Source: an uncultured bacterium (GTDB taxonomy: Bacteria; CSSED10-310). Taken from it: a stretch of 64,000 nt of DNA. Below are positions 21,534 to 48,195 of the stretch, piece after piece (positions within the stretch are counted from its first letter, which is position 1; each line of letters starts with the position of its first letter). The notes under the pieces were generated by a model. That model worked only from the letters and a program-made list of their open reading frames with translations. It was not told the DNA's origin and ran no database searches. A program made the position numbers and the translations under genes. Where the stretch lies: positions 21,510 through 85,509 of the forward strand of contig CAZELM010000009.1 in NCBI GenBank assembly GCA_964512995.1. The letters run 5' to 3'.

Positions 21534-22181
21534 ATGCGGAATGTTTTTTTTATGATGATCTTTTTTCTTATTCCGTTCACCATTACCTCAGCGATCCGAA
21601 GTTCCGATATTAATTCAGCGCCATCGACTTCAACCGAAATAATAAAGCCTGGTTATGCATTGGTCATGGTAAATGGATCAAAAATTCGGATGCAGGAATA
21701 TCAGGTAAATTTAAAGTATGATACGGTTTCGTATAAAAGCTCCAAATCGGGTTTAACTGCGACATTTCCTTTGGAGCGTGTCAGTAAAATCATCAAATTC
21801 GATAACAGCCTTGAAAAGATTCCGGAAGAAGCGCTGGTCGTTTTTCAGAACGCTGCCTCATTGAATCAAGTCAAGGATGATGGTGGCATTCCGATCTTAT
21901 TTAAAGTGACAAAAACCGTTGTCGGCAGTCAGGGCAGCACGCAGAAAGGTACAACCGGGGGCAAATCAACGGGCCAATTCACCAGCAAGGGATCTTCAGG
22001 TACCAGTAGCAGGAATTCTTCATCCAGTGGGACATCATCATTTGGTAATGCCACATCACGATCTTCATCATCATTCTCTTCATCCAAGTCGCAGTCCTCA
22101 AGTTCTGGTCGATCATCCAGCAGTTTTTCAAATAATTCAAATGATGATTTTTTTAATGCACTGTTCGGTGGCAATAAATAA
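21534..22181 (+). CDS. Exported hypothetical protein with Ser/Gly-rich low-complexity C-terminus
   Basis: Signal peptide, GAGGG RBS, upstream promoter; Ser-rich tail. Confidence 0.65.
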   Translation: MRNVFFMMIFFLIPFTITSAIRSSDINSAPSTSTEIIKPGYALVMVNGSKIRMQEYQVNLKYDTVSYKSSKSGLTATFPLERVSKIIKFDNSLEKIPEEALVVFQNAASLNQVKDDGGIPILFKVTKTVVGSQGSTQKGTTGGKSTGQFTSKGSSGTSSRNSSSSGTSSFGNATSRSSSSFSSSKSQSSSSGRSSSSFSNNSNDDFFNALFGGNK

Positions 22182-22225
22182 ATTGAGAAGTTCCTTTTCA
22201 CTGTGAAGATAATATCAGAGGCATT

Positions 22226-23788
22226 GTGAAAGATCTGGAATTTTTACAAATAAAATATGATCGATATGGATTCATCGTCGCATTTACGCTGTTTGTGATT
22301 TTATCCATGTGCTTTATCGGCTATTCCACCGATGATATTTATATCAGTTATCGCTATGCAGAGAACATGTCAAATGGATATGGACTGGTATTCAATAAAT
22401 ATGAAGCACCGGTTGAAGGATATACCAATTTTTTATGGACATTGATGTTGGCCTGGGCTGCCTGGGTGCGTTTACCATTACCTGAAACGGCCACTCTGTT
22501 CAGCATCATTTTCAGTGCGTCACTGATCCTGTTCATGGGCGTCTGGGCGAATCGCCAGCGTCACTACCAGTCTTTTTTTCCGAATTCAGTCCCTATGATC
22601 ATTCTGGCTTCTCATCCAAGCCTTTCGCTTTGGTCCGGCACCGGGATGGAAACCCCATTTTTTTCATGGCTGATTGTATTGGGCTCGGTTGTCATGTCAT
22701 GGGAAGATCGGCGATGGAGCAGCGGTGGGTGGATATCTGGATTCATCTGGTCTTTGGCAGCACTGACACGACCCGAAGGGATTTTAATCGGCCCCATGAT
22801 CATTGTGTTAAATTTTTTTGAATCCCGTGAATTCACCAGACAAAAGCGGGAAGTGTTGTTGAAACGCTTCACTGCATTTGCCGTACCGGTGATGTGGCAT
22901 TTTATGTGGAGGAAGTTTTTTTACGGGGAATGGCTTCCAAACACATTTTATGCCAAGACAGGGAATCATGGCGAACTGATCTATACTGGACTGACCTATT
23001 CCGCTCATTTTTTACTGGAAGGCGGTTTTTTATTGCTGTTCCTGATGATACTGGGTTTATTTGTTCGACCCCGTATCTGCGGTATATGGACGAGTTTATG
23101 CACTGTTCTTGTTTATTTTATGTATGTGATCTGGGTTGGAGGCGACTGGATGCCGGGGTATCGTTTTTTTCTTCCCATTCTCCCTCTGATGATCATGCCC
23201 GCCTCTGTCTTTATCGTATGGCTGTTTCATCGAGATTCAAGAGCCGGATTTATTACGCTGTCCATCGTTGTCGCCTACATGAGCCTGACGGGATTGCTGG
23301 GTCAACGTGCATTTATACAAAATTCGTTGATTTCTACCATCAAGAATGGATCGCCACCCGTTGACGTATTGGTGGAATTGGGACTTCATCTTCGGGAGGT
23401 CGCACCCTCTTACGCCGTCATTGCGGTTGTTCCCGCCGGAAAAGTACCTTATTATTCCAAACTCCAATCGATAGATATGCGCGGACTGTGTGATCGGCAT
23501 ATTGCTGGGACAGAGATTCCCAAAGATATCAAACACTCCTTGCCAGGCCATCTGAAACGAGATCCGCAATATGTGCTCAATCTGAAACCCGACTATATTA
23601 TTTTGTCCGGAGCGATTCGAAAAGAAAACCTTCCCCCCGCCAACCTGACACTTCGGGAAGGTCAATTTTTAGATGAGTGGGATATTGTGAAGCTGCCGGA
23701 CTTCAAGGAGTGTTATAAGCCGGTTCGGGTTGCTCTGCCAAAGAGTGACAAAGATCTTTTTTACTATCGGCGCATCTGCCGGGAGTAA
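22226..23788 (+). CDS. Polytopic membrane protein, GT-C-fold glycosyltransferase-like (arabinofuranosyltransferase-like family)
   Basis: DD in first loop (TDDIYISYRYAEN), VEGYTNFLW, GMET, TRPEG, GGDWM..RFFLP, soluble C-terminal domain. Confidence 0.65.
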   Translation: MKDLEFLQIKYDRYGFIVAFTLFVILSMCFIGYSTDDIYISYRYAENMSNGYGLVFNKYEAPVEGYTNFLWTLMLAWAAWVRLPLPETATLFSIIFSASLILFMGVWANRQRHYQSFFPNSVPMIILASHPSLSLWSGTGMETPFFSWLIVLGSVVMSWEDRRWSSGGWISGFIWSLAALTRPEGILIGPMIIVLNFFESREFTRQKREVLLKRFTAFAVPVMWHFMWRKFFYGEWLPNTFYAKTGNHGELIYTGLTYSAHFLLEGGFLLLFLMILGLFVRPRICGIWTSLCTVLVYFMYVIWVGGDWMPGYRFFLPILPLMIMPASVFIVWLFHRDSRAGFITLSIVVAYMSLTGLLGQRAFIQNSLISTIKNGSPPVDVLVELGLHLREVAPSYAVIAVVPAGKVPYYSKLQSIDMRGLCDRHIAGTEIPKDIKHSLPGHLKRDPQYVLNLKPDYIILSGAIRKENLPPANLTLREGQFLDEWDIVKLPDFKECYKPVRVALPKSDKDLFYYRRICRE

Positions 23789-27588: not shown

Positions 27589-28038
27589 TTATTGTAAATG
27601 ATCGAGATCATCCAAGTCTTTATGTCGGCCGGCTGCCAATTTATTCTTTCGGAGATCCTCCAGAGAAATCACGTTGGTGGGGATACCATCGATCATCGTC
27701 ACCTGACGATTCGGATAACATTCATCGAAACGTATCCCGCTCGCTCCCGTTATCAATTCAATCCGCACAGGAGGAACACCCATTCGAATCACCTTATCTT
27801 TTTCAAGAAACAAGTCATGTGAGAGTGACTTTTCGGGTATCCCAAAGTCGATCAAGGCAGCGATTGCTTTCATGGCATTGACAGGATCGATTGCAATCCA
27901 GATATCCAAATCACCGGTTGCTCGGGGATATCCGTAATAACCAACCGCATATCCCCCGACCAATAAATACTCAACGGCATGTAAGTTCAGCAATCTCAAG
28001 AAATCTTTGAAGTCTGGATGAAGTTCGATGGATTCCAT
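27589..28038 (-). CDS. Minimal nucleotidyltransferase (DUF6036/AbiEii-like), copy A
   Basis: VGGYAV...PRATGDLD and KLAAGRHKDLDD motifs. Confidence 0.85.
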   Translation of the reverse strand: MESIELHPDFKDFLRLLNLHAVEYLLVGGYAVGYYGYPRATGDLDIWIAIDPVNAMKAIAALIDFGIPEKSLSHDLFLEKDKVIRMGVPPVRIELITGASGIRFDECYPNRQVTMIDGIPTNVISLEDLRKNKLAAGRHKDLDDLDHLQ

Positions 28039-28180
28039 ACACTAGTCTCCTCTCCACTTCAATCGCATTGAAACGCTCTGCAACCGATCTCGATCGCCAG
28101 TATTCTTTGATATCACGGTCATCACCCAATGGTTTTATGATCAATTTGCTCTTATCGAGATGGGGTAAGTGTGTGTCCAT
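27971..28180 (-). CDS. Small partner protein of nucleotidyltransferase A
   Basis: EYWRSRSVAERFNA...VYG...RLQR pattern; overlaps the NTase start by 68 nt. Confidence 0.65.
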   Translation of the reverse strand: MDTHLPHLDKSKLIIKPLGDDRDIKEYWRSRSVAERFNAIEVERRLVYGIHRTSSRLQRFLEIAELTCR

Positions 28181-28268: not shown

Positions 28269-29816
28269 TCAGACTGAAATGACGCGATTGATTTCACCGA
28301 TCGAAGTAATGCCATTCAATGCCAGTCGAAACCCATCCTGGCGCAGCGAACGGAAGTCAGATGGCAATGCGGCAGTCAGATCTGCAACTGTTCCTCCGGA
28401 TTCCAGTTGTTTCCAGAATGCATCCTGCGGCCTGAGCATCTCCATGATGATCGCGCGACCCTGAAATCCCGTGTTGTGGCAATGGGAGCATCCTACCGAC
28501 CGGTACAATTGGGTTGGCGGCTCCTCAGTATCCAGAGATGCGATTTCTTCAGGAACCATTCGTTCTTTGCAGCGAGAACATAATTTTCGGACCAGCCGTT
28601 GGGAGATCACACCGATAATCATTTCTCGAAGAGTAATACCCGGAACACCCAGATCGAATAACAGTTTGATGGTCGCTACCGCTGAATGGGCATGCATTTG
28701 GGTAAGCACCAGATGCCCGCTTTGCGCGATTTGTGCCGCCAATCTGGCAATGCCGGTTTCCCGGATCTCACCGATCCCGATCACATCCGGATCCTGACGC
28801 ATCAGTGACTGGATGGCTGCCGTCATGGTCAGTCCGATCGAATGATTGACCTGCAATTGCTGGGTGCCTGGCAAATGGTACTCCACCGGATCTTCCACGC
28901 TGACAACATTGATGCTCTCTCTCTCGGCCAGTTCCTGGAGCATCAGATAGAGGGTGGTCGTTTTTCCGGAACCGGTCGGACCCGACACTACAACCATGCC
29001 ATATTCGGAATTCAGCCAGCTCCTGAATATTTTTAAATGATGATCGGAAATGCCGACATCTTCCAGACGAGGGGGGAATGCGGATTTATCGAGGAACCGA
29101 ATCACCACTTTTTCGGCGAACACAAAAGGAACAACCGATATTCGGAGATCCATGGTGATCATCGAATCGGGATTGCCTGGATCGGGTATCCGGATCAGGA
29201 TGCGGCCATCCTGAGGCAGTCTACGTTCCATGATATCCAATGCAGCCATTTTTTTGATCCGGCTGACAATCGCCGAGTGCTCCTCGGGCGTGAGATCGAT
29301 CGGCTGAGTCTGCAGAACGCCGTCGATCCGGAATCGGACTCGGACACAATCCCCGTGCGATTCGATGTGCATATCACTGGCTTTCGTGTGAATCGCCAGG
29401 AGGATGAGATCGTTGACACGGGTTGAGATCCGGTCATCTCCCTGTGACATCATTCTGGAATGAGCGTTTTCGAGCAGTTCTGCCGGCAGAGGCCGGATCG
29501 TGTATTTATCGGATTTGGATAATGCGGTTCCAACGTCGATCAGGCTGGAATCGAGAATGCCTTTCGTTTCTGCATAGTCGATGATGGATAACATGTTTTC
29601 ATCGAATATCCCGATTTGTGTCAACGCAGATGTGAAGGAAGCACCATCCTCGATAGATTTACTCATTGTTGTGATGATGGCGGACATGTCACTGGTTTCT
29701 TTGAATTCAGCAGAGATCGTTTCCATGGCTCTCATGAATGAAACACCATTGGCTAACAATCGGCCCAGCCGGATAAACATGTCGGATACATTCGTTCGGA
29801 TGTCCTGGGTTTTCAT
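28269..29816 (-). CDS. Fusion of a soluble GspF/PilC-type domain to a GspE/PilB-family secretion ATPase
   Basis: aa 1-100 T2SSF-like (LGRLLANGVSFMRAME...IEDGASFTSAL...YAETKGILD); then ASDMHIE, RFRIDG, RRLPQDGRI, GPTGSGKTT, EDPVEY, DPDVIGIGEIRE, SGHLVL, CxxC/CxxC; no TM helix seen. Confidence 0.85.
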   Translation of the reverse strand: MKTQDIRTNVSDMFIRLGRLLANGVSFMRAMETISAEFKETSDMSAIITTMSKSIEDGASFTSALTQIGIFDENMLSIIDYAETKGILDSSLIDVGTALSKSDKYTIRPLPAELLENAHSRMMSQGDDRISTRVNDLILLAIHTKASDMHIESHGDCVRVRFRIDGVLQTQPIDLTPEEHSAIVSRIKKMAALDIMERRLPQDGRILIRIPDPGNPDSMITMDLRISVVPFVFAEKVVIRFLDKSAFPPRLEDVGISDHHLKIFRSWLNSEYGMVVVSGPTGSGKTTTLYLMLQELAERESINVVSVEDPVEYHLPGTQQLQVNHSIGLTMTAAIQSLMRQDPDVIGIGEIRETGIARLAAQIAQSGHLVLTQMHAHSAVATIKLLFDLGVPGITLREMIIGVISQRLVRKLCSRCKERMVPEEIASLDTEEPPTQLYRSVGCSHCHNTGFQGRAIIMEMLRPQDAFWKQLESGGTVADLTAALPSDFRSLRQDGFRLALNGITSIGEINRVISV

Positions 29817-30295
29817 CGGATACCTCCTGGAAATGGAATGGTTTTTTTATACTCCTGCCGTGAATCCATGTCTTGGGTTCTGGATCGCTCCTCTTCCTGA
29901 TCCACTGCCCATTGCAGCAATCGATCCCGGCGGAAACGGATTTTTCCTGAGATGTTCAAGCAGGGTAACTGGTCGAGCAATGAGGCGATTTCCGATACGG
30001 ATATTTTCAGGAGCCTGGCTGCATCCTCGATATCCAGAATGTCATCCGGTATGGATTTGGGAGTCAGTTCATCACGAAGTGCTTTCCGAATTCGAAGATC
30101 TGCGGTTTCCGGGAGTGTCTGATTCAATGCAGCCTGGAGATTCTTCTTCAACGACTGAGCCGTCTGCTGCTTTTTCTGACAATCCGGACAGTCCGCGAGA
30201 TGGACTTCGAAGGCTTGCCGTTCACCGGAATCCAGTGCATCGTCCCAGTATGCATCAAATTGAGAACACGGATGTTCATGGGCGTTGGTATTCAT
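29813..30295 (-). CDS. Soluble zinc-binding anti-sigma (zf-HC2/ZAS) fused to an excisionase-like HTH (HTH_17)
   Basis: HLADCPDC (HxxxCxxC); ILDIEDAARLLKIS...GKIRFRRDRLLQW; 4-nt overlaps with both neighbours. Confidence 0.8.
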   Translation of the reverse strand: MNTNAHEHPCSQFDAYWDDALDSGERQAFEVHLADCPDCQKKQQTAQSLKKNLQAALNQTLPETADLRIRKALRDELTPKSIPDDILDIEDAARLLKISVSEIASLLDQLPCLNISGKIRFRRDRLLQWAVDQEEERSRTQDMDSRQEYKKTIPFPGGIR

Positions 30296-30849
30296 GTGAG
30301 AGACACTCCTTTCTCCGACAGGAATTGAATCATTTGCCTGCGTGCCCGATGAAGTTGAATTCGGACATTTTCCGCTGTCAGATTCAATGTCTGACCGATG
30401 CGCTCACTGTCCATCCCCTCAACTTCCTTCAGCAGGAGGATCATCCGCTGATTCGATGAAAGCCGCTGACATGCCATCTCGATCAACTCGCCAGCCATCA
30501 ACCTCCGTTCAGGATGCCGGACATCGATGAGCGAGGCCGGCATATTGGATTCATCGGAAGGCTTAAGGCTATCATCCGCCAATCCACGACGGCCGATATG
30601 GGTTCTGATGCGGTTGACTGCGATCTGAAAAATCCAGGATTGAAACCGTCCCATGGGCTGATATCGGGGCGCGTGCCGAATGAGCCGGATGAAAACCTCC
30701 TGCACTACATCTTCGGCATCCGGTTGATTGCGGAGGCAGTTCAGGGCGAATCGATAAATGCGATGGCGGTATCGTTCGTAGAGCATGTCGAACGCTGCCG
30801 TGACTCCCGCAGCAAACATCACCATCAATTCCTCATCACCAAAATTCAT
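30292..30849 (-). CDS. ECF sigma factor
   Basis: AFDMLYERY, DAEDVVQEVF, FQSWIFQIAVN (sigma2); LLKEVEGM..ERIGQTL....NVRIQLHRAR (sigma4). Confidence 0.93.
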   Translation of the reverse strand: MNFGDEELMVMFAAGVTAAFDMLYERYRHRIYRFALNCLRNQPDAEDVVQEVFIRLIRHAPRYQPMGRFQSWIFQIAVNRIRTHIGRRGLADDSLKPSDESNMPASLIDVRHPERRLMAGELIEMACQRLSSNQRMILLLKEVEGMDSERIGQTLNLTAENVRIQLHRARRQMIQFLSEKGVSLT

Positions 30850-30876
30850 ATTACCCTTTACCCTCTCTCTGTGATG

Positions 30877-30906
30877 TGTAACCCTGGTCCGTCCGGGAAT
30901 GTTACA
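30877..30906. promoter_or_regulatory. Inverted repeat TGTAAC-N18-GTTACA upstream of the ECF operon (ECF promoter or operator candidate)
   Basis: Perfect 6-bp inverted repeat, 28 nt upstream of the sigma ATG. Confidence 0.4.
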
Positions 30907-30956
30907 ACGGAGCGATTTTTTTTTGAAATGGAATATCGTGGGTACCGGAATGATAA

Positions 30957-31427
30957 TTACTGAGTATCTTTTTTCTTTTTCACTGCCAGCTCTTTGACTT
31001 TTTTTAGAATTCGGGCATCTTCCTGATGTTTGGGTTTATTAATGTTCTGCTTGATACAGATCAAGCTGTCGATATCGATCCAGTTCGCAGGGCTTTCGCC
31101 GTAGTGTCCTACGATTCTGGATTCCCATGCAGTTGAAAAAGAAAGGGGTTCGGCGTCAAGGAAAAGATCTATTCGGTTCGGTGCGATTCCAAGTTGTGTG
31201 ATTTCTCTTGGTTTTGTGTGATCCAGTAATAAGGGGCTGCCGAACTCCAACAGCGCCAGATTGGCTTTGGAGACATTTTTTTCTTCGGGATCGATCCATA
31301 AATCCATATCCTTCGTATATCGGGGTTTCGCATGATAGATGAAAGCCAGACCGCCAATGATGAGATAACGTACTTTATGTTGGAAGAACAAGGTTAAGAG
31401 ATCCTCAAAGTCTTGAATTGTTTCCAT
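30957..31427 (-). CDS. Minimal nucleotidyltransferase (DUF6036/AbiEii-like), copy B
   Basis: IGGLAF...PRYTKDMDLW; RIDL; KPKHQED; homologous to copy A. Confidence 0.85.
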   Translation of the reverse strand: METIQDFEDLLTLFFQHKVRYLIIGGLAFIYHAKPRYTKDMDLWIDPEEKNVSKANLALLEFGSPLLLDHTKPREITQLGIAPNRIDLFLDAEPLSFSTAWESRIVGHYGESPANWIDIDSLICIKQNINKPKHQEDARILKKVKELAVKKKKDTQ

Positions 31428-31617
31428 GCAGCGTCCTTTTCTTGGCGTTATTGACCGTTTGTACATCCTTGTGAATGTGAACCAGCGCTGATAAGCGGTC
31501 TTCGGGTGAAAGTGACTGCCAGAACATTAAGTCCCAAAGTTCCGCATCATCGTGATCTTCGGTGCAGTGAGCAACCATTTTTTTCTTTCTCAAGCGGGAG
31601 CGTTCTTCTAGATCCAT
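31405..31617 (-). CDS. Small partner protein of nucleotidyltransferase B
   Basis: FWQSLSPEDRLSAL matches the W-x-S-x-S-x-x-[ED]R pattern of partner A; overlaps the NTase start. Confidence 0.65.
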   Translation of the reverse strand: MDLEERSRLRKKKMVAHCTEDHDDAELWDLMFWQSLSPEDRLSALVHIHKDVQTVNNAKKRTLHGNNSRL

Positions 31618-31859
31618 GCGTTTTCCTCTCCAATTTTTTTGCCATTTCACGACCATTGATTGTTATCCATTATGCAATTTTTCTGCTGAAAAGGTCCATT
31701 ATCTTTTGCGGCAGCTTCTCTTTTGTTAAAAAAAATGTATCTCAAAACAGAGATCTGTGCAATGAGTTTTAAGATTAACACTACTATTCATTATGGGATG
31801 ACGATTCTCTGTTCCTCTCCCCTGCCATTTTCCTGCTCATATCGTAGGTGTTGACAAAA

Positions 31860-38607: not shown

Positions 38608-41142
38608 ATGGTCAATCTCAGAGGTTTTTATCCGATGAAATCCAGGTATGCACTGTGGAAGGTTGCGTTCGGAAGCGTTTTGTCTCTGCTTATCACCCCA
38701 TTTGTGTTCATGATACCGGTCTCCATCGAATCACTGGAACAGAAGCGAAAAGCGCAATGGTTTCATGCAATCGCTGTCGGGCTGATGGGAACCATCATTG
38801 AAGTTCTCATTATGTATTATCTGCCCGTTCCATGGTGGGTTTCATTGATCCTGATAGGATTGACCAACATATCCTGCGCAATATTGCTGTACACACTTTC
38901 TCCATCAAGGTCTTTTCATCAAGCGAATGCATCCGATGTTTCCTACATCCATGACATATTGGCCTGGTCATTATATACCATAATTGCATTCACACCCATT
39001 TCCGTTTTTATGGCCATGTTTTCAACTCGATGGGGTTTTCAGATTCTTTTAAAACCAACGTTTTACTCCTCGATCCTTTTGATTCTGCTGGTGATCTTTC
39101 TCCCGGCCGGAATGCTCTTCGGGATGATTTTTTCAAAAGTCAGAAGCTGGAATATGAAACCATCACCATTCGGTTTTTTTCTCGCGTTGCCGGTCATGAT
39201 GTTTTCATATCTTATCAGCTTTTTTTCGTTCTCCACGATCACCAAACACCTGTTAAAAATCGGTAAACTTTCCTGGAATATAGATGTTTCGTTTATTCCT
39301 GGAATCAACATGGGATTCTGTGTATCGTCTCTTGCCTTTTTTGCTGTATGTGTCGGGATATTTTTATTTCTCGTCATGAGCCGAAGTGTGCCGCATTTTT
39401 TCTTCCGGTCTTTCCTCACGATACTTATATTTGCTGGATTCATGTTCCAGCTATTTATGTTGAACACGATGTTACCATTGAATTTGCATAAAAAAACGGG
39501 TGAAAAGGCGGTAGGTGCACAGGACTGGGGGGGGGCCTCCCGTCATTTCAGTCAGATGATGAGGCAATCGACATGGAATCCGTTCGTGGATTCGATATTG
39601 GAGTCATGGGCATTATGTGCAGTGATGTCCGATGTTCCCGGACACTTTCAGACCATTCGTCAGTATGCCGATGACCTGCCGGCAACTTTCCCGGTATCTC
39701 CATTTCTGAGTGGTATCCGCTCCATGAAGTCCATCCCATCCATTTTTTCCAAACCGGTAATCACGACACTGACACCGATCCGTCCCGAATCCTATCTGGA
39801 CGATGCCTGGTGTTCATTTCTGACTGCCGTCAAGCATACCTGTCCAGAATTGAACGAAACGCAGTTGAAATTCACGTTAAAGGATATGTCTCCGGTGATC
39901 GGCAACATCGAACTTCCCAAAATGAAAATGGAAGCTGATATTCTGCCTGCGGCTGACGTTTTTGATCTGGAACCTGTTTTTATTCCGGGTGAGGATATCC
40001 CTGATGCAATCACGCAGGGATTTCCGGTCATGTCATTTGATATTTCCAATCAGCACTGGATTCTGGTTGTTGGATGGGAGCCGAACAGCGAATCCGTCAT
40101 CATGTTCGATTACAGTGGATTCGACAGGGAACGAATCCGACCCATGAGTAAAGAAGATGTTAATGCCCTGATCGATGGTTCGGAAGCAGACTTGTATCAG
40201 GATACCGAAGAGATCTTGCAGGAGATCATTCATCTGGAATATTTCCCTCAATTTCTGGATCGGCTTCGTCTGAACAACAATTGGGCGATCATTTTTCAAC
40301 GCCGGGATCGCCCGGTGCTCCTGGATCAGATTCATTCGTTGGATCGGGATTCCATTGTGGATATGTGTCTGGCGCGCTACTCCCTGATGAATGGGCAACT
40401 GACGAAATGTAATGACATTTTGGATGAACACTCAACCGAACCCTGGGCTTGTTCGCTCCGTGCACTGGCAGATGCGTTTATCCAACAGGAGTGGCCAATC
40501 GCACTGGATACACCGGCAGCCGATATCGATTCGGGCAAAGTCGCTTCGGATTTGGATATTGAAACTTTGGATGTGTGGTCACTCCATTTCATCATCACGT
40601 ATACGCCGGAGAATTTTCAATTTACGAAGAAGCAATACTTTCAGATTTTCAATCGGCTTTTTACGTTGAATCTTCTGTCGAATACATTTCTGGATTCTTA
40701 TCTGTTGGTGGCGAGTTGGTTTGGAGATGAAACGGAAACATTGAAAGCCGCTGAATTATATGCCATCCAGAATCATTACTCCTATGGCGCAATCTACCAT
40801 GTATTGAAGGCAATCACATCAGTGCCTGTCATTTCGGAGTCGGGCATGAAGTCGCTTCAACACTATATCGATATGTGCGGATTATTCCTTTCCGATCCGT
40901 ATGATGCTCCGGATCTGATCCGGTATCGTGGGTTTTGTGCACCATACACGGCTGCTCGGGCGATTTTGGCAGACAACGACCAAGACCGGTTGACGTGGTG
41001 GCATCGGACGGTTGAACTGGATGGAAAGAATCCGGTTTACCTGGCCAGATATAAAGAACAACTCCAGATCATGAATCAAACGAAACGTGTTCCCGGTATT
41101 GATATCATGATCGATTATTTTCATAAGTCAGGAGTTGAATGA
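38608..41142 (+). CDS. Polytopic membrane protein with C39-like (papain-fold) domain and helical repeats
   Basis: About 8-9 N-terminal TM segments; DAWCSF...QGFPV...QHWILVVG...MFD pattern; helical C-terminus. Confidence 0.6.
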   Translation: MVNLRGFYPMKSRYALWKVAFGSVLSLLITPFVFMIPVSIESLEQKRKAQWFHAIAVGLMGTIIEVLIMYYLPVPWWVSLILIGLTNISCAILLYTLSPSRSFHQANASDVSYIHDILAWSLYTIIAFTPISVFMAMFSTRWGFQILLKPTFYSSILLILLVIFLPAGMLFGMIFSKVRSWNMKPSPFGFFLALPVMMFSYLISFFSFSTITKHLLKIGKLSWNIDVSFIPGINMGFCVSSLAFFAVCVGIFLFLVMSRSVPHFFFRSFLTILIFAGFMFQLFMLNTMLPLNLHKKTGEKAVGAQDWGGASRHFSQMMRQSTWNPFVDSILESWALCAVMSDVPGHFQTIRQYADDLPATFPVSPFLSGIRSMKSIPSIFSKPVITTLTPIRPESYLDDAWCSFLTAVKHTCPELNETQLKFTLKDMSPVIGNIELPKMKMEADILPAADVFDLEPVFIPGEDIPDAITQGFPVMSFDISNQHWILVVGWEPNSESVIMFDYSGFDRERIRPMSKEDVNALIDGSEADLYQDTEEILQEIIHLEYFPQFLDRLRLNNNWAIIFQRRDRPVLLDQIHSLDRDSIVDMCLARYSLMNGQLTKCNDILDEHSTEPWACSLRALADAFIQQEWPIALDTPAADIDSGKVASDLDIETLDVWSLHFIITYTPENFQFTKKQYFQIFNRLFTLNLLSNTFLDSYLLVASWFGDETETLKAAELYAIQNHYSYGAIYHVLKAITSVPVISESGMKSLQHYIDMCGLFLSDPYDAPDLIRYRGFCAPYTAARAILADNDQDRLTWWHRTVELDGKNPVYLARYKEQLQIMNQTKRVPGIDIMIDYFHKSGVE

Positions 41143-43574
41143 TGAAACGAGTAACAGCCACGAAAATATTTTTCACCGCATTTTTCGGGACGCCGATTTC
41201 TGCAGGATGGATTCTGGGAACAGAACTGCACGGTTCTGGAAACCGCCGGAAAGCGATTCTTTTCCGGAGCTTTTCTATTGGCATAACCATGGGTTTGTTC
41301 ATTGCTTTGTTTCTGATTCCGGTCAACTGGAAAGTGAGTTCCGGGATTTGGGCAGGTTTTCTTGTTTTCAGCGCAATGATTCTCGCCATTTCTGTCCATT
41401 TTTTAAATCTGAATCATCCCAGACCCGAGCCGGCGGATGGATGGGCACGACGCAGTCTTCTGGCGATTCCGGTTCTGTTTGCTGTCATGATACCCATCGA
41501 TCTGTTCTGCCACATCGCATTGCATGTGATATTCAAGCCGATACTGATTCATCACCCGATTTTCATGCAGAATACGGATTATCTCGCCAAGTCGATACTG
41601 AGTGCATTTCTCACGAGCATCTGGGGTGTGGTGTTCTTAATTGTGTCATTTCGAATCGGTCGGCTGGTCTCATCCCATGATTTTTTAAAGGCCGTGATTG
41701 CCTGGATGTATGGGCTTTTTCTGAAAATGCTGCTGGCAAATTGGATGATTGAAATCCTGATCGCACAGCTCTATGGTGTTGACGCGCCGTTTTCCATTGC
41801 CGGTCTTTACGGCCTGTTGGCGGGGTTATTTTTCAGCATAGCGCTTCCTTTTATTGTTCTGGAACTGGCATGGGGACAGGAACCACTATGGCGGAGATTC
41901 CGTTCGGTAACCGGAACGTGCATCGCAGCCGCCATGTCCATGATCATCCTGTTCGGATTGACACCATGGATCGAATGTGCGGTGGGTAAGTCATTTGAGC
42001 GGAATGGTCGACCCAATCAGGCATTGACCTGGTATGGGAGAAGTCTGGTCAGGCGATCCAATCCGTATATAATCTCTTATCTTCAACACCGGATCGGATT
42101 GATCAATTATAAAAAAGGCAATATCGATAAAGCCATCACATCATTCAAGATGCTTCAGACGCTCCATGATGCCAATCATCAACTGGTCAAAGATGCCAAC
42201 ATATTCATGGATCGGCTGTCAGAAACCCGGCTTGGGGAACGTGTGGTTTTGCCGGGAGTCGAGAATGACATGGAGTATCAATCCGCTTACTGTGCTCCGA
42301 ATACTCTGGCACTGATTTTTAACTTCTGGGGGAAAACCATGACAGTATCCGATATCGGTGAGGATATCGCCTTGCATCTGGCTGGAACCCGATTGACCGA
42401 TATTGTACATTTCTGCTGTAAGAATGGTTTGGAGCATCTTTTCATACCGTTCATGACGATGGATGACATCAGATTCATCATCGATCAGGGTGTTCCATTT
42501 ATTGCATATCTTCCGGGACATGTCCTGGCGGTTTTCGGGTATGATGACCGGCTCAATACGCTCATTGTCTTCGATACCGCGACGTGGGACGTGTGGGTTG
42601 ATCATCCCATGATGGAGTTTTTTGAAATCTGGAGTTACACCAACTATACCGGAGCAGTTATTTTGGATGCGGAAGAAAAGGAGCGGACAGCGGCGATACG
42701 CTCTCGATTTGACACGCCTCCAGCAGAATCCGCCTGGTATTACCAGCAGGCTATGGAATCAACGAATAATCTGGATAAAACAGATTGTCTCAGAAATGCC
42801 ATTCAAACAAACCCCCTGAATATTCCGGCATTGATCGAGGTTGACCTCTCCTTCCCTTCCATGAGATCGATGGTGGATCTGCCTTCACAAATCGACAAAC
42901 TTATCCCAATGATCAAATCCATTATCCATAGATCCTATTTCGCAAATTGGGATCTTCTCGCTGGATTCTCCAGCATGCTTCTGAATAACGGCAAATTTTC
43001 CGAGATGCGTGATCTGTACCAGGATATCAAAACACTCAATATTGATATTTCAGACCATGAAACGAGAGTATTACTGGACAGCATCGAAACAATGGCAGGT
43101 ATTGCAGCCTGGAAAACGGGAGACTCTCTGCAGGCGCAACAATACATCGGATCGAAACAGAAGCGGCTCAAGGGCAGGGAGTGGTATGCGCTGGGAATCA
43201 TTCAGCAGGAATCCGGGTTGATCGAAGATGCAAAAAATTCATTCGGCTATGCGATCAAATCAAAAGATGGCGACATCGCCTCCATGTCAGTGAACCGGCT
43301 GGAGGCATTGACGGATGCAGATGAGCCGGCATTTTTAATTGAGTTATACCGGGCGTATCTCTTGCTTTGGCCGTATGATGCTCAGCGCTGGATTCGCTTG
43401 GGCGATCTGTGTCTGGATGCTCTGGAAAAAAGCGGGAAATCCGAAGAAGAGCGATTGGTACAGGCTCGGCAAGCATACTCGCTCGCTCGCGGACTGACAC
43501 AGGATCCCGATGCCAGGCAGCACTGCCGTACACAACTCGAAAAAATCAAAACATTTGGTTCATCGAACCTTTGA
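41139..43574 (+). CDS. Polytopic membrane protein with TPRs and C39-like peptidase domain
   Basis: About 7 TM segments; TPRs; QSAYCAPNTLA, QGVPFI, GHVLAVFGYDD, VFDT (Cys-His-Asp); C-terminal TPRs; ATGA overlap with the upstream paralog. Confidence 0.7.
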   Translation: MMKRVTATKIFFTAFFGTPISAGWILGTELHGSGNRRKAILFRSFSIGITMGLFIALFLIPVNWKVSSGIWAGFLVFSAMILAISVHFLNLNHPRPEPADGWARRSLLAIPVLFAVMIPIDLFCHIALHVIFKPILIHHPIFMQNTDYLAKSILSAFLTSIWGVVFLIVSFRIGRLVSSHDFLKAVIAWMYGLFLKMLLANWMIEILIAQLYGVDAPFSIAGLYGLLAGLFFSIALPFIVLELAWGQEPLWRRFRSVTGTCIAAAMSMIILFGLTPWIECAVGKSFERNGRPNQALTWYGRSLVRRSNPYIISYLQHRIGLINYKKGNIDKAITSFKMLQTLHDANHQLVKDANIFMDRLSETRLGERVVLPGVENDMEYQSAYCAPNTLALIFNFWGKTMTVSDIGEDIALHLAGTRLTDIVHFCCKNGLEHLFIPFMTMDDIRFIIDQGVPFIAYLPGHVLAVFGYDDRLNTLIVFDTATWDVWVDHPMMEFFEIWSYTNYTGAVILDAEEKERTAAIRSRFDTPPAESAWYYQQAMESTNNLDKTDCLRNAIQTNPLNIPALIEVDLSFPSMRSMVDLPSQIDKLIPMIKSIIHRSYFANWDLLAGFSSMLLNNGKFSEMRDLYQDIKTLNIDISDHETRVLLDSIETMAGIAAWKTGDSLQAQQYIGSKQKRLKGREWYALGIIQQESGLIEDAKNSFGYAIKSKDGDIASMSVNRLEALTDADEPAFLIELYRAYLLLWPYDAQRWIRLGDLCLDALEKSGKSEEERLVQARQAYSLARGLTQDPDARQHCRTQLEKIKTFGSSNL

Positions 43575-43875: not shown

Positions 43876-45336
43876 TTAAACCAATGCTTTCAAAATCGCT
43901 GTGAGCAACTCGTACGTTTTCGGCACGGATGGATGGTTCAGTTCTTCGGCTGGGGAGTGGACATTGTGCATCTCCGGTCCTATGGAAAGCATATCCACGC
44001 CGGGTAATTTCTCGCTGAACAATCCACACTCGAGCCCCGCATGAATGGCTTTCACTTCCGGTACCCGATGATGCATATCTTCAAACACCTTCATGGCCGT
44101 TTTCAGCAGCGGTGAGTTCATGTCCGGTTTCCATCCCGGGTATCCGCGGGGTTCTTCCACATCCGCCCCAACCAGATCGGCAACCGCCCGAATCTGTCTC
44201 TTGACGGCCATCAACTGGGAGGTCACTGCCGACCGCGTCAACAATGTTGTTTTGAAGAGGTCTTCCTCCGTGCTCATCACGCCGACATTGGTCGATGTTT
44301 CCACCAAGCCCGGCACTTCCGGACTCATCGCGATCACACCATGGGGTAATGCCATCAACAGATTGATGATTTTACCGGAATCCGGGATGGTGACCGGTTT
44401 TAAACTCCCTGTCGTGGTATTCTCCTGAGTGATCTCGAACGTGAATCCCGGATCGGTCTTCGCCAGTTCAGCACTGATCAGGTCGGCAATATTCGCCAAT
44501 GAAGCCTGGAATGCCGCCAGCTTTTCCTGCGGGACAATGACGGTTGCTTTTGCAGCATCCGCGATCGAATTCCGTTTGTTACCGCCTTCCAGAGCGACCA
44601 ATCGGAACGACGTCACATCCCAGCCTGCTGCCAGGCATCGAGCCATGATCTTGTTGCCGGAACCCCGTCCAAGATTAATGTCCACTCCGGAATGACCCCC
44701 TTTAAGTCCACCGGCTTTTATTGTCAGCACCGTACCTGATACCGGTCCGGTCTCCCGCTGCAACGGCAGCTTGATAATGGAATCTCCCCCACCCGCACAG
44801 GAGATGTAATATTGCCCGAATTCTTCGGTATCCAGATTGATCAGCATCCGGCCTTTGACGAAATCGGCTTTGAGCCCGTGTGCGCCGTCCATCCCTGATT
44901 CTTCGTTGACCGTAAAAAGCAACTCCAGTGGGCCATGTTCCAGGGATTTGTCTTCCATGATCCCCAGCATGATCGCTCCGCCGATCCCATTGTCCGCTCC
45001 CAGAGTCGTTCCACGAGCGCGAACAAAATCGCCGTCGATGTAAGGTTGAATCGGATCTTTGGTGAAATCATGTGTCACGCCGGGGGCGGCCACGGGAACC
45101 ATATCCAGATGACCCTGCAGGACGACGATCGGTGCATGTTCATGACCGGGAGTTGCGGGAACGGTAACCAGCACATTTCCCACCTCATCCCGGCGTACGG
45201 CAAACCCCAGTTTCTCCGCTTCTTCTATGACATACGCCGCAATCTGCTCCTCATGGAGTGACGGATGCGGAATGTTGCACATATTTTCAAAATGTTTCCA
45301 GACGTGTTTTGGATTCAGTTCAGAAAGAACACCCAT
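43876..45336 (-). CDS. pepD: Aminoacyl-histidine dipeptidase (M20C)
   Basis: LQGHLDMV, TTLGADNGIG, NEESGM, NLDTEE, GGHSG, IHAGLECG, HSPAE. Confidence 0.93.
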   Translation of the reverse strand: MGVLSELNPKHVWKHFENMCNIPHPSLHEEQIAAYVIEEAEKLGFAVRRDEVGNVLVTVPATPGHEHAPIVVLQGHLDMVPVAAPGVTHDFTKDPIQPYIDGDFVRARGTTLGADNGIGGAIMLGIMEDKSLEHGPLELLFTVNEESGMDGAHGLKADFVKGRMLINLDTEEFGQYYISCAGGGDSIIKLPLQRETGPVSGTVLTIKAGGLKGGHSGVDINLGRGSGNKIMARCLAAGWDVTSFRLVALEGGNKRNSIADAAKATVIVPQEKLAAFQASLANIADLISAELAKTDPGFTFEITQENTTTGSLKPVTIPDSGKIINLLMALPHGVIAMSPEVPGLVETSTNVGVMSTEEDLFKTTLLTRSAVTSQLMAVKRQIRAVADLVGADVEEPRGYPGWKPDMNSPLLKTAMKVFEDMHHRVPEVKAIHAGLECGLFSEKLPGVDMLSIGPEMHNVHSPAEELNHPSVPKTYELLTAILKALV

Positions 45337-45428
45337 TTCATGCCTCCTTTAAAAAATTTCGATAGTTATGGTCAAGGATATTCCCTTACCTGATCAGTCG
45401 TTACCTTATTGTCTGTCCGGATCGCAAG

Positions 45429-45986
45429 TCAACCCGTCATGATAAACTCCGCCAGAATGTCGACGTATTTCGGAGATATCAGCCGGTAATGGGGATCATA
45501 CGCCTCCCGGTACTCATCCGAATGATGGACAGCCGGGAATCGCATCACTTGAAGGTGACGCAAAAATTCGGAAATCGTATGAGTATCAAACCAGAATGGG
45601 CTGTTTCCCAACAAATCGCAGAAAATGCTGATCACCCGGGGGAAATCGATCTCCGGATCCCTGCGTTGTTCATGACAGCTTCGCAGGCAGATTTCCGAAA
45701 TGCGATCCGGGGGGATTCCTGCTGATTTGCATCGTTTCAGGTGCAGCCGGCCGATGGGATCGATCAGCGTAATGGGATAGAATAGCGGGAGTGACCCATC
45801 CGGGGCAATCGCGTCATATTCCTCTTTCAGATATCTCCGGAATGAGCGATCGTCTGCAACAAGATGCTCCATCCCGAACACCGATTGATACACGAGTTTA
45901 TAATAGTCCTGCAAGTGAGCGAGCGGATACCGGGATTGTTCTGATTCGAGCAGACGCATCAGATGCCGGCGAAGCGTGTCAGTCAT
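45429..45986 (-). CDS. Conserved hypothetical protein
   Basis: QDYYKLVYQSVFG.EH and HHSDEYREAY.PHYR motifs; start overlaps the sulfatase-like stop. Confidence 0.65.
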   Translation of the reverse strand: MTDTLRRHLMRLLESEQSRYPLAHLQDYYKLVYQSVFGMEHLVADDRSFRRYLKEEYDAIAPDGSLPLFYPITLIDPIGRLHLKRCKSAGIPPDRISEICLRSCHEQRRDPEIDFPRVISIFCDLLGNSPFWFDTHTISEFLRHLQVMRFPAVHHSDEYREAYDPHYRLISPKYVDILAEFIMTG

Positions 45987-48195
45987 GATTCGTTCCTCCA
46001 GAGCGGGCTTGATCGATCTCGATGCCATCCACTTCGATCGTCCCATTTCCAGAATAGTACACGCGGAACTCCAGCCCGTCTTCGCCATCACTGGAAAAAT
46101 TCAGATGATAATCTGCGAATCCGGGATCTGCGCTTTGGGAGGAGTCTCCGGATATGGAAACTCCTGGATGAAGTATCACGTCTCCCCTGTTCTGCACGAT
46201 ATCGATCCATGCGATTTGTCCGCTGTCCGTCCGATGGGTTCTGATCCGGAATCGGCACGTATATTCTCCCGTCGGCAGGGACAGGTAAGGTCCGAAAATC
46301 AGGTAATTCCGTTCATCGCCAGGAGCTGCGACCACCGTCTCCCCACGGGATGCAAGCGGATTCGTCTGAACTCTGCCGGTGTTCCTCGGCAGGTCTTCGG
46401 CTTCAATCCACAACGGCAGCCGGATGGGCGGATCGATCGGGGGAGTAACCGCACGATGGAATCGTCTCGGAACGGAAAACGGAGTGGTGTTCTCGTCGGG
46501 AAAGACGGCGGCGACCGACCATTCGTAGATACCCGGATCGATCCGGCTCCACTTATCTTCGGGGAGCAGTGCGTCGAGATCACTTAGCACGGTGTCAAAC
46601 TCCGCAGGATGGTCCTGGGCGGAGTAACTGGGAGAGAGCCGGACGCGGTACCCGGCCGCTCCCGGAACATCTTCCCAATCAAATCGCAGCAGTTGTCGGC
46701 TGTGAATGCCGTCGGGTGGAGATAGCAGGATGGGAGCGGCTGAACATGGAAGGGTCTGCGCCACCGGTTCTGAGCTGGAAGCTGGACTGGATGTTTCGGG
46801 GGGAGCGATATCCGACAGACCGTTCTGCAGATATCCCAGTGCCTGCAACATATCGGTCTGCTCCCGGGAAATGTCACCGGGTCTGGTGGATGGTTCATCC
46901 AGAGCCAGAAACATCTGGGCCATATCGAGAATCCCGGCGAACTCCGGTTCGGAATCCAATGGCCGGGGGTGGTGTTCGGCCGGATCCCGGTCGAGGTCGT
47001 AGGATTCGACCGGCGAGCGGCTCCACCAGACATGATCCATCACCGGTGAGAGAACCACTTTTTTATTGCGGGAGATGCCGGTTCGTTGCCGATGTGCCGG
47101 GATGATTTCATTGGGTCCGATCTCCGACACGGAGATGCTGGCGTTGGGTTCGATGAATCCGTGACCGTCGAACAGAGTGGCACCGTCAAACAGGAGATTA
47201 TTGGGGATACGGAGCACATTGAGCAGCGTTGCCGGGATATCGACCAACCGGGCGGTTCCCGAAAGCAACTTGCCGGCTGGCGTTCCGGGTATATGAAAAA
47301 TCAGCGGAACACGGATGGTCGATTCAGATAGACGCCAGGAGTGGTCAAAAAATAAATCCTGTTCTCCGAAACATTCACCGTGATCGGAGGTGAGCACGAT
47401 CAAGCTCTCGTGAAGGGTGTTCTGGAGTTCCGGGTGGCAGAAGAGCCGCTGAAGTTGCATATCGACCGATGCGATTTCGCCGGCATACATCGATCGGTAA
47501 TGATTGAGATCAGTGCTGGGATGATCGCCCACGATGGAGGGGATGGACCCCCGGTCGATATTGGTGAGAAACCGTTCGGGAGGTGCCGGTCCGAACTGAT
47601 CAAACGGAACGGGTGGTGTGTACGGTGCATGGGGATCGAACAGGTGGATCCAGACAAATATGGGGGACTGGCGAGGTGTTGTCAGCCATGGAATCGCCTG
47701 GGCGATGGTCTCCGATGCGGATCGCTGCCATTTGAATCCGGTGTCGTTGACGGTGTCGAATCCCTGGCTCAATCCGGATGTGGAGGCGAGACCTTCGAGG
47801 CTGAGAAATGCGGCGGTTTCATAGCCATTGGATTGGAGAAATGTGGAGATGGTGATGCATGGATTGGGTTTGAAATGGTATCCGGCATTGGCACGAAGTC
47901 CATGGTGAACGGGGTAGACACCGGAGAGCATTGATGCGTGGGAGGGAAACGTGGTGGGAATGGCGGAGTAGGCCGTGATGTAGGCGTTGCCGGTCCGTGC
48001 GAGGCGATCGATCGTTGGTGTATGGGAATGAAACGCTCCATACGCACCAACCGCGTCCCAGCGGAGTGTATCGATGGTGATCAGGAGGATGTTTCTGGGT
48101 GGATCGGGTGATTGGCAGCTCCACAATCCAAACAGGAATCCGATGAGGAGGATACCCTTTTTTATAGGTCTGATGGATCGTCTGATGTGTGACAT
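45979..48195 (-). CDS. Alkaline-phosphatase-superfamily (sulfatase-like) lipoprotein with C-terminal beta-sandwich domains
   Basis: LWSC lipobox; LITIDTLRWD, PTTFPSHASMLSG, WIHLFDPHAPY, TSDHGE, VPLIF; C-terminal Fn3-like and CBM-like segments. Confidence 0.8.
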   Translation of the reverse strand: MSHIRRSIRPIKKGILLIGFLFGLWSCQSPDPPRNILLITIDTLRWDAVGAYGAFHSHTPTIDRLARTGNAYITAYSAIPTTFPSHASMLSGVYPVHHGLRANAGYHFKPNPCITISTFLQSNGYETAAFLSLEGLASTSGLSQGFDTVNDTGFKWQRSASETIAQAIPWLTTPRQSPIFVWIHLFDPHAPYTPPVPFDQFGPAPPERFLTNIDRGSIPSIVGDHPSTDLNHYRSMYAGEIASVDMQLQRLFCHPELQNTLHESLIVLTSDHGECFGEQDLFFDHSWRLSESTIRVPLIFHIPGTPAGKLLSGTARLVDIPATLLNVLRIPNNLLFDGATLFDGHGFIEPNASISVSEIGPNEIIPAHRQRTGISRNKKVVLSPVMDHVWWSRSPVESYDLDRDPAEHHPRPLDSEPEFAGILDMAQMFLALDEPSTRPGDISREQTDMLQALGYLQNGLSDIAPPETSSPASSSEPVAQTLPCSAAPILLSPPDGIHSRQLLRFDWEDVPGAAGYRVRLSPSYSAQDHPAEFDTVLSDLDALLPEDKWSRIDPGIYEWSVAAVFPDENTTPFSVPRRFHRAVTPPIDPPIRLPLWIEAEDLPRNTGRVQTNPLASRGETVVAAPGDERNYLIFGPYLSLPTGEYTCRFRIRTHRTDSGQIAWIDIVQNRGDVILHPGVSISGDSSQSADPGFADYHLNFSSDGEDGLEFRVYYSGNGTIEVDGIEIDQARSGGTNHD

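Follow-up and report, generated by a model that had tools for sequence, protein, structure and literature searches.

A recurrent cassette of an ECF sigma factor, a zinc-binding anti-sigma factor and a soluble PilC-PilB fusion ATPase in uncultured bacteria

The analysis concerned a 64,000-nt stretch of contig CAZELM010000009.1 (here called the window) from an uncultured bacterium of the lineage CSSED10-310, in which three genes read on the minus strand form a compact cassette of ~2.6 kb. The genes encode an extracytoplasmic function (ECF) sigma factor, a zinc-binding anti-sigma (ZAS) factor with an additional winged helix, and an ATPase in which a PilC/GspF-type domain is fused to a PilB/GspE-type core. 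The same trio recurs in unrelated genomic surroundings and is a conserved cassette far beyond chance adjacency. Its parts are known (ECF sigma, ZAS anti-sigma, GspE/PilB core and GspF/PilC domain), while the third component is of a new type. The cassette genes in the window are as follows.

30292-30849, minus strand: ECF sigma gene (185 aa)
29813-30295, minus strand: anti-sigma gene (160 aa)
28269-29816, minus strand: fusion ATPase gene (515 aa)

Both junctions read ATGA in the window sequence, with stop and start codons sharing 4 nt, so the three genes and two 4-nt overlaps described in the initial annotation are present as it described them. Its domain calls (ECF sigma, ZAS-HTH anti-sigma, PilC/PilB fusion) are correct by Pfam, and its picture of an all-cytoplasmic system stands, transmembrane segments being absent from all three proteins.

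A search with the ATPase against 5.8 billion proteins returned nine other full-length proteins carrying both T2SSF and T2SSE (39-48% identity, so that the closest relative of the window ATPase is only 48% identical), and the subsequent matches were ordinary PilB/GspE proteins covering only ~74% of the query. Genomic contexts were examined for seven of these nine fusion ATPases, and in all seven an ECF sigma gene followed by a gene for a zf-HC2 protein of 157-170 aa precedes the ATPase gene, with the gene order kept, the genes mostly overlapping or abutting, and the neighbours entirely different. Three more contexts obtained with an anti-sigma profile (L013, L014 and L015/L016) likewise carry the trio. 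A five-sequence anti-sigma alignment was additionally run against genome collections. It recovered a single locus from 185,579 species genomes (L011, in a Zodletone metagenome-assembled genome, MAG) and a single locus from metagenome contigs (L012); the trio is complete at both. Altogether, the ordered trio with unrelated flanks is present in 12 of 12 distinct neighbourhoods drawn from loci L001-L018 and the window (the window, L001, L002/L014, L004, L005/L013, L007/L011, L008, L009, L012, L015, L017 and L018). The neighbourhood check proposed in the initial annotation, a search for recurrent triplets, therefore came out in favour of the cassette: the homologues do co-occur. Gene overlaps at the other loci, as given by the gene coordinates, are mostly 1-8 nt, and a fusion ATPase is present in every context examined of the ZAS/winged-helix anti-sigma. 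No pilus or type II secretion system (T2SS) genes were found in the 12 neighbourhoods within the flanks examined. The source names among the anti-sigma matches include candidate division CSSED10-310, Candidatus Brocadiia and Planctomycetota, and the module is rare yet spread over several deep lineages.

One candidate for an unfused ATPase (P0011, at L017) was rejected, all three genes of that locus being broken into pieces. At L017 4463-7179, on a 199-kb contig, each of the three cassette genes is split into two, a pattern which indicates indel errors of long-read assembly or a decaying copy, not a natural split. At L009 552-554, and at the same site in L010, a TGA lies in the sigma2-sigma4 linker and sigma4 apparently continues in frame. 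Two independent metagenomes (3300009320 and 3300013120) carry identical DNA at this site, and the TGA may reflect a sigma that is truly split or decaying, read-through, or recoding of the stop.

The first cassette protein matched Sigma70_r2 (residues 23-88, E 9e-19) and Sigma70_r4_2 (residues 122-173, E 1.7e-11) and nothing else in Pfam, and it scored 102 bits against the NCBIfam model TIGR02937 (cutoff 42.9). The NCBIfam equivalogs all stayed below their cutoffs, with PRK12513 as the best (116.7 vs 206). By these matches it is a plain two-domain ECF (group 4) factor of the sigma-70 family. It is 32-53% identical to the sigma proteins of the other cassettes, and the nearest solved structures are SigE, AlgU, RpoE and SigW. 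Directly 5' of the sigma gene, the motif TGTAACAT-N14-GGGTT(n)TAC is found with identical spacing in 11 loci. In the window it lies at the following positions.

30873..30909, minus strand: predicted ECF-type promoter, from motif recurrence at 11 loci
30906..30899, minus strand: TGTAACAT, followed by a 14-nt spacer
30884..30880, minus strand: GGGTT

A position-weight matrix derived from nine of the 11 sites gave exactly one site per locus and one in the whole 64 kb; no second site was found with the matrix or with relaxed regular expressions in the 64 kb or in any available flank. From sequence alone, TGTAACAT-N14-GGGTT has the make-up of an ECF promoter, with AAC inside its -35 element and a -10 element that is short, and its recurrence together with its single occurrence would be the signature of an autoregulated ECF operon. 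Scans for sigma-70 promoters and terminators around the operon performed no better than on shuffled sequence.

The second cassette protein is divided into three regions.

30065..30271, minus strand: anti-sigma domain, residues 9-77, with the ZAS motif C10, H32-x3-C36-x2-C39 (zf-HC2)
29930..30046, minus strand: acidic winged helix, HTH_17/excisionase-like, residues 84-122 (HTH_17, AlphaFold2, Foldseek)
29816..29929, minus strand: long helix, residues 123-151, and I-x-F-P-G-G tail (AlphaFold2, alignment)

The zf-HC2 match is well above its Pfam cutoff (34.6 bits vs 22.2), and the NCBIfam results agree with an anti-sigma factor. The HTH_17 match falls slightly below its own cutoff in the window protein (25.0 bits vs 27) and is recorded for many of the homologues. 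H32, C36 and C39 do not vary among 18 homologues, nearly all of which also have an N-terminal cysteine at or near position 10, and the N-terminal profile matches solved structures of DdvA, RslA, RsiW and RsrA in the Protein Data Bank (PDB). Conservation extends to the linker LPDDADLRIR and to the block D-I-L/M-D-I-E-x2-A-x2-L ... L-P-x-F-E-I-G-G-R-I-R-F-R-R-D-R-I-x2-W, whereas the I-x-F-P-G-G tail is kept in most core-family members and missing from L005/L013, L015 and L018. The AlphaFold2 model consists of four helices in the anti-sigma domain, a small winged helix (86-122) and the long helix (123-151), with a predicted local distance difference test (pLDDT) score of 79 overall and 90-94 in the C-terminal domain. 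Foldseek related this C-terminal domain to RdfS, BldC, Xis, TraN, Rv2175c and gpNu1 (probability ~0.99, with weak E-values of 0.05-0.6). For RdfS, BldC and Xis the E-values were 0.09-0.6.

The winged-helix domain has a net charge of -1 to -6 and an isoelectric point (pI) of 4.1-5.1 in 18 of 18 homologues, and the position of its recognition helix reads like SEIASLLDQL, acidic or hydrophobic and without basic residues. The basic DNA-binding surface of HTH_17/excisionase-MerR-like winged helices was not found in it. Because the domain is acidic throughout the homologues and its recognition helix has no basic residues, it is probably a protein-binding module, not a DNA-binding one. ZAS domains bind and silence their cognate sigma factors, and homology together with the overlapping genes suggests that the cassette anti-sigma sequesters the cassette sigma. 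The family is small: its profile gave 16 matches among 5.8 billion proteins, and 74 after divergent anti-sigmas had been added, about 65 of these being of the zf-HC2/HTH_17 type with 144-177 aa.

The third cassette protein is also composed of three regions.

29514..29816, minus strand: PilC/GspF-type cytoplasmic six-helix domain, residues 1-101 (T2SSF, profile, AlphaFold2)
29436..29513, minus strand: flexible linker, residues 102-127 (low pLDDT, poor conservation)
28272..29435, minus strand: PilB/GspE core, with N2 at residues 128-243 and C-terminal domain at 244-515 (T2SSE, motifs)

Pfam placed T2SSF at residues 16-101 (31.2 bits vs cutoff 25.2, E 2.4e-7) and T2SSE at residues 126-511 (E 6e-103). 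In an alignment of ten full-length family members, the Walker A motif (GPTGSGKT at 279), the Asp box (VEDPVE at 307), the Walker B motif with the catalytic Glu (DPDVIGIGE at 342-350), the His box (from 367) and the tetracysteine typical of extension ATPases (C413/C416/C443/C446) are all invariant, and the protein looks catalytically competent. The AlphaFold2 model (mean pLDDT 86) comprises a six-helix bundle at residues 3-101, a linker, N2 and the C-terminal domain. Its bundle is predicted with pLDDT 80-93, while the linker has values of 59-66, falling below 50 at residues 123-126; residues 102-127 are also poorly conserved in the family. Foldseek aligned the core with Geobacter PilB and Thermus PilF/PilB at target TM-scores (template modelling scores) of up to ~0.9, then with GspE, and identity to Geobacter PilB and Thermus PilF is 37-40%.

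A phmmer search against the PDB aligned the ATPase over residues 128-512 only. A profile of the first 127 positions of the family matched both cytoplasmic domains of M. xanthus PilC (1e-11 each), the first cytoplasmic domain of EpsF/GspF (8e-13), Thermus PilC (1.6e-12) and also TcpE. Furthermore, the hallmark E-x2-G-x-L-D of GspF/PilC coincides in the alignment with E83, G86, L88 and D89, residues that are invariant in the family. The N1/MshEN domain (T2SSE_N, PF05157), which the ordinary PilB/GspE homologues from the protein search carry, was not found in the ATPase by Pfam; the T2SSF-type domain stands in its place. No hydrophobic segment of transmembrane character was found in the trio proteins or in the ATPase family members, the maximum 19-residue Kyte-Doolittle hydropathy of the ATPase (1.53) being within a beta-strand of N2.

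The NCBIfam results agree with a GspE/PilB-like ATPase, and the protein scored far below the equivalog cutoffs for GspE (TIGR02533, 380 vs 630) and PilB (TIGR02538, 356 vs 675). Identity of the N2 and C-terminal core is 44-60% within the fusion family, compared with 35-45% to 60 PilB/GspE proteins, and the first split in a clustering by the unweighted pair group method with arithmetic mean (UPGMA) on p-distances, which is a distance clustering rather than a full phylogeny, cleanly parts the fusion family from PilB/GspE. By these comparisons the fusion ATPase is not an ordinary PilB and its core belongs to a separate cluster. The initial annotation had considered that it might group with the ordinary PilB of a nearby pilus locus; the separate cluster speaks against this, and no pilus locus lies nearby. 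As judged from its sequence relationships, the PilC-PilB motor fusion is a new protein family.

When 1.84 billion representative proteins were searched with a profile and copies of the N-domain were mapped by a custom hidden Markov model, the fusion proved to be more widespread than the word-indexed search had implied. Among the best 150 matches, at least 41 further representatives carry one or more PilC-like domains ahead of the PilB core, in one copy (~505-520 aa), two tandem copies (~611-643 aa) or three (P0249, 747 aa). Pfam confirmed T2SSF and T2SSE in 40 of the 42 wider-family proteins tested, and these proteins are soluble, with no hydrophobic segment. In two of them (P0214 and P0167), Pfam placed a Clp_N domain of the ClpA/ClpC type N-terminal to the PilC-like domain; to our knowledge, neither the Clp_N-fronted nor the triple PilC-like architecture has been described. 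At L015, the ATPase shares 60% identity with P0204, a member of the wider family. The sole context examined of a two-domain protein (P0172, at L018) contains genes for an ECF sigma, a 150-aa protein, the two-domain fusion ATPase and a core-only ATPase. The 150-aa protein is unannotated by Pfam; it has H-x3-C-x2-C and MTLDEVAAFLRI...LPCFELAGQLRVRRSRLVEWI, by which it clearly reads as the same ZAS and winged-helix anti-sigma.

The core-only ATPase of L018 (9892-11124, plus strand, 410 aa) has the N2 and C-terminal core with the tetracysteine and no N-terminal domain, and the window cassette has no counterpart of this gene. Profile matches of ~1000 aa were considered as PilB joined to full-length PilC, and this was rejected for want of a hydrophobic segment. 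P0139-P0155 and P0137 are soluble proteins of ~980-1050 aa that match the profile in two or three stretches, and P0137 at least has two tandem PilB-type cores behind two PilC-like domains.

Our favoured explanation, which we hold tentatively and with not quite even confidence, is that the ATPase is an ATP-dependent anti-anti-sigma that remodels the sigma/anti-sigma complex in an autoregulated cytoplasmic ECF module. The sigma would drive its own operon from the TGTAACAT-N14-GGGTT promoter, with the genes translationally coupled, and the ZAS domain would hold the sigma sequestered. The winged helix, long helix and tail of the anti-sigma would form a docking handle for the ATPase, where the docking site is probably at or beside the PilC-like domain. 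PilB hexamers pass ATP-driven movement to the cytoplasmic domains of PilC. The fusion ATPase would likewise be a soluble PilB-type hexamer, with the PilC-like domain replacing the membrane-docking N1, and its ATP-driven cycling would reach the anti-sigma through this domain, remodel the sigma/anti-sigma complex and set the amount of free sigma. The input would be a cytoplasmic cue, such as the thiol or zinc status of the ZAS domain, the nucleotide or energy state, or a ligand of the ATPase; a role of the ATPase as co-inhibitor is the less likely alternative to that of anti-anti-sigma. Docking is favoured because the ZAS/winged-helix anti-sigma and the fusion ATPase travel together, L018 included. 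A protein-handling role would fit P0214 and P0167, which bear Clp_N, the domain through which Clp unfoldases bind substrates and adaptors. We infer that the fusion ATPase does not power a pilus or a secretion system. The coupling of pilus or secretion status to transcription suggested in the initial annotation found no support, given 12 neighbourhoods devoid of pilus and T2SS genes, the absence of N1/MshEN and the unanchored PilC-like domain. For its other suggestion, that the sigma controls the ATPase or is controlled through it, the support is genomic association, which would suit either direction.

Several considerations weigh against the anti-anti-sigma explanation. The proposed contact between the ATPase and the anti-sigma is drawn from genomic association, which likewise would not tell activation by the ATPase from inhibition, and the ~18 sequence pairs are too few for covariation analysis. 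We know of no PilB-class ATPase that remodels soluble proteins. ZAS anti-sigmas like RsrA respond to oxidation without a helper, and therefore the ATPase need not be a regulator. It could also be an output, because the promoter scan covered only 64 kb and short flanks. The broader proposition is doubtful: that soluble PilB hexamers with PilC "rotor" domains are a new class of ATP-driven remodellers, derived from the type IV filament motor, which pull an anti-sigma off its ECF sigma. This would be the first non-filament, non-membrane function of that motor family.

The main rival, which we regard as unlikely, takes the ATPase as the output of the module and not its regulator. The ZAS anti-sigma alone would sense a cytoplasmic signal, for example thiol-oxidative, and free the sigma, and the ATPase would act elsewhere, perhaps in trans on a type IV pilus (T4P), a T2SS or another membrane platform, where its PilC-like domain might compete with or replace the cytoplasmic domain of PilC. 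As the third gene inside a predicted autoregulated operon, the ATPase gene would certainly be a target of the sigma; the ZAS ligands C10, H32, C36 and C39 are similar to the ones in RsrA and RslA, and the catalytic motifs of the ATPase are intact. However, pilus or T2SS genes were found in 0 of the 12 neighbourhoods and the N1/MshEN docking domain is absent, and an ATPase that is merely an output leaves unexplained the conserved acidic winged helix of the anti-sigma, which is seen only beside these ATPases. That same domain could instead bind DNA and tether the sigma there, with the hexamer working on the DNA-bound complex. We give this only a small chance: the fold does resemble those of the DNA binders RdfS, Xis, BldC, TraN and gpNu1, and the wing bears a conserved R-F-R-R-x-R, but the acidity of the domain in 18 of 18 homologues (pI 4.1-5.1), the acidic or hydrophobic residues at the recognition-helix position, the weak Foldseek E-values (0.05-0.6) and the lack of a conserved DNA motif near the cassette besides the promoter all point the other way.

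Patchy spread across distant CSSED10-310, Planctomycetota/Brocadiia and unclassified MAGs, flanks that differ everywhere, and the position of the window cassette between two paralogous nucleotidyltransferase-like gene pairs would also suit a mobile accessory unit (a defence or addiction module) rather than housekeeping signalling. Such an origin is very improbable, since PADLOC gave only generic P-loop matches (E 7e-5 or weaker, ~40 residues), no integrase, transposase or repeat was found beside the cassette at the inspected loci, a tblastn search of 72,556 plasmids with the anti-sigma gave no match, and the GC content of the cassette does not differ notably from that of its surroundings. The probability that the trio is an accidental adjacency or annotation artefact with a spurious T2SSF match is negligible. 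In the window protein alone the T2SSF match is modest (E 2.4e-7), and HTH_17 is below cutoff; the artefact is nevertheless refuted by the matches of the N-domain family profile to solved PilC/GspF domains (1e-11 to 1e-13), the confident six-helix bundle given by AlphaFold2, and the recurrence of the trio in 12 of 12 neighbourhoods with a common promoter.

The surroundings of the cassette, as revealed by Pfam scans of the other large open reading frames (ORFs), are an unremarkable stretch of the chromosome of a diderm bacterium. None of the ORFs scanned matched pilin, secretin, full PilC/GspF, PilM-Q or prepilin peptidase, so that the lack of pilin, secretin and prepilin peptidase reported in the initial annotation for the three-gene block holds across the 64 kb. 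The window also encodes BamA, Skp, LpxD, LpxA, a Clp ATPase, LolCD-like genes, RF2 and Lnt, as well as a histidine ammonia-lyase, an M61 peptidase, a TetR/RND efflux set, a sulfatase and a 2000-aa helicase-nuclease. No Rfam families or tRNAs were found in it. The GC content reaches 0.53-0.57 at 44001-48000 and 56001-60000, compared with about 0.43-0.50 elsewhere, and these GC-rich stretches coincide with the sulfatase/M20 peptidase region and the helicase-nuclease ORF. Paralogous two-gene units flank the cassette in the same orientation (30957-31656 and 27589-28180, both minus strand). In each, the gene of a nucleotidyltransferase-like protein (169 or 149 aa) overlaps a small ORF (83 or 69 aa). 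The two nucleotidyltransferase-like proteins share 36% identity (E 4e-18) and match DUF6036/DUF2204 weakly. These units may be toxin-antitoxin-like pairs, and they were seen at no other cassette locus. Three further coding regions were recorded.

55023-61025, minus strand: the 2000-aa ORF, with DUF4011, an AAA_11/AAA_12 helicase, an MTES_1575 restriction-endonuclease-like domain and DUF3320
38608-43574, plus strand: ORFs of 844 and 811 aa with a 4-nt overlap, the sole Pfam match being a weak TPR
21534-23788, plus strand: ORFs of 215 and 520 aa, with no Pfam family

Nothing linking an ECF sigma/anti-sigma pair to a T2SSE-type ATPase was found in the literature searched, although an earlier entry in an ECF group table is possible. 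No description of soluble PilC-PilB fusions was found in the searched literature either. The remark in the initial annotation that this is not a described system agrees with these searches, apart from such a possible listing. Bacterial signal transduction relies heavily on ECF sigmas, for whose release only a few modes are known: proteolysis, a conformational change in the anti-sigma, partner switching, phosphorylation and C-terminal extensions. If the anti-anti-sigma explanation is true, these would be joined by a mechanistically different mode, ECF activation through a dedicated hexameric motor ATPase, the PilB/PilC motor pair would be able to work free of membrane and filament, and the cassette would offer a minimal soluble system for in vitro study of the long-debated mechanical coupling between PilB and PilC. 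Being self-contained and having a defined promoter, the cassette is directly testable in a heterologous host, and it may serve as an orthogonal ATP-gated sigma switch.

Compared with known systems, the fusion ATPase resembles PilB/GspE in its full N2 and C-terminal domains, all catalytic motifs and the tetracysteine zinc site, and it resembles PilC/GspF in an N-terminal domain that is homologous to the cytoplasmic domains of those proteins and keeps E-x2-G-x-L-D. Unlike the PilB-PilC pair, it combines both elements in one soluble polypeptide. While the PilC/GspF platform protein is a polytopic protein of the inner membrane in which transmembrane helices separate two such domains, the window protein has a single one and no transmembrane helices, and it lacks the N1/MshEN domain by which PilB/GspE docks to GspL/PilM or binds cyclic di-GMP. 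In contrast to T4P and T2SS loci, no pilins, secretin, PilMNOPQ or prepilin peptidase are encoded nearby, the partners being a sigma and an anti-sigma. The fusion ATPase departs from GspE/PilB in three features that define that family (N1 domain, equivalog score and genomic company), and its N-domain departs from GspF/PilC in membrane topology. The other two proteins are similar to RsrA-SigR and RslA-SigL, with a cytoplasmic H-x3-C-x2-C anti-sigma that has an upstream Cys and is predicted to be co-transcribed with an autoregulated ECF sigma. The cassette differs from these pairs in the winged helix, long helix and FPGG tail added to the anti-sigma, and in an obligatory third gene for a predicted hexameric ATPase; we know of no ATPase partner for RsrA-type systems.

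FlgM, the anti-sigma of sigma-28, is exported through a membrane type III apparatus whose ATPase, FliI, is of the F1/V1 class. The concept of a machine with a secretion-type ATPase that takes an anti-sigma off its sigma is shared with the cassette, which has no export channel and an ATPase of the PilT/GspE class. In B. subtilis, the GspE-like ATPase SpoIIIAA and the weakly GspF-like SpoIIIAB are required for sigma-G activity (PMC2703783). SpoIIIAA/SpoIIIAB (with SpoIIQ) are thus a loose precedent for GspE/GspF-like parts tied to an alternative sigma. Unlike the cassette, which consists of three soluble proteins with no membrane part, SpoIIIA forms a membrane channel of eight proteins that joins two cells and acts indirectly, through the maintenance of forespore physiology, and sigma-G is not an ECF sigma. 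Partner switching is listed as a mode of ECF regulation in PMC7826278. In PhyR-NepR-EcfG the third component is a phosphorylated sigma mimic and not an ATPase motor, and the proteins are not homologous to those of the cassette; the two are alike in logic, in that a third cytoplasmic protein decides, or in the cassette would decide, the hold of the anti-sigma on the sigma.

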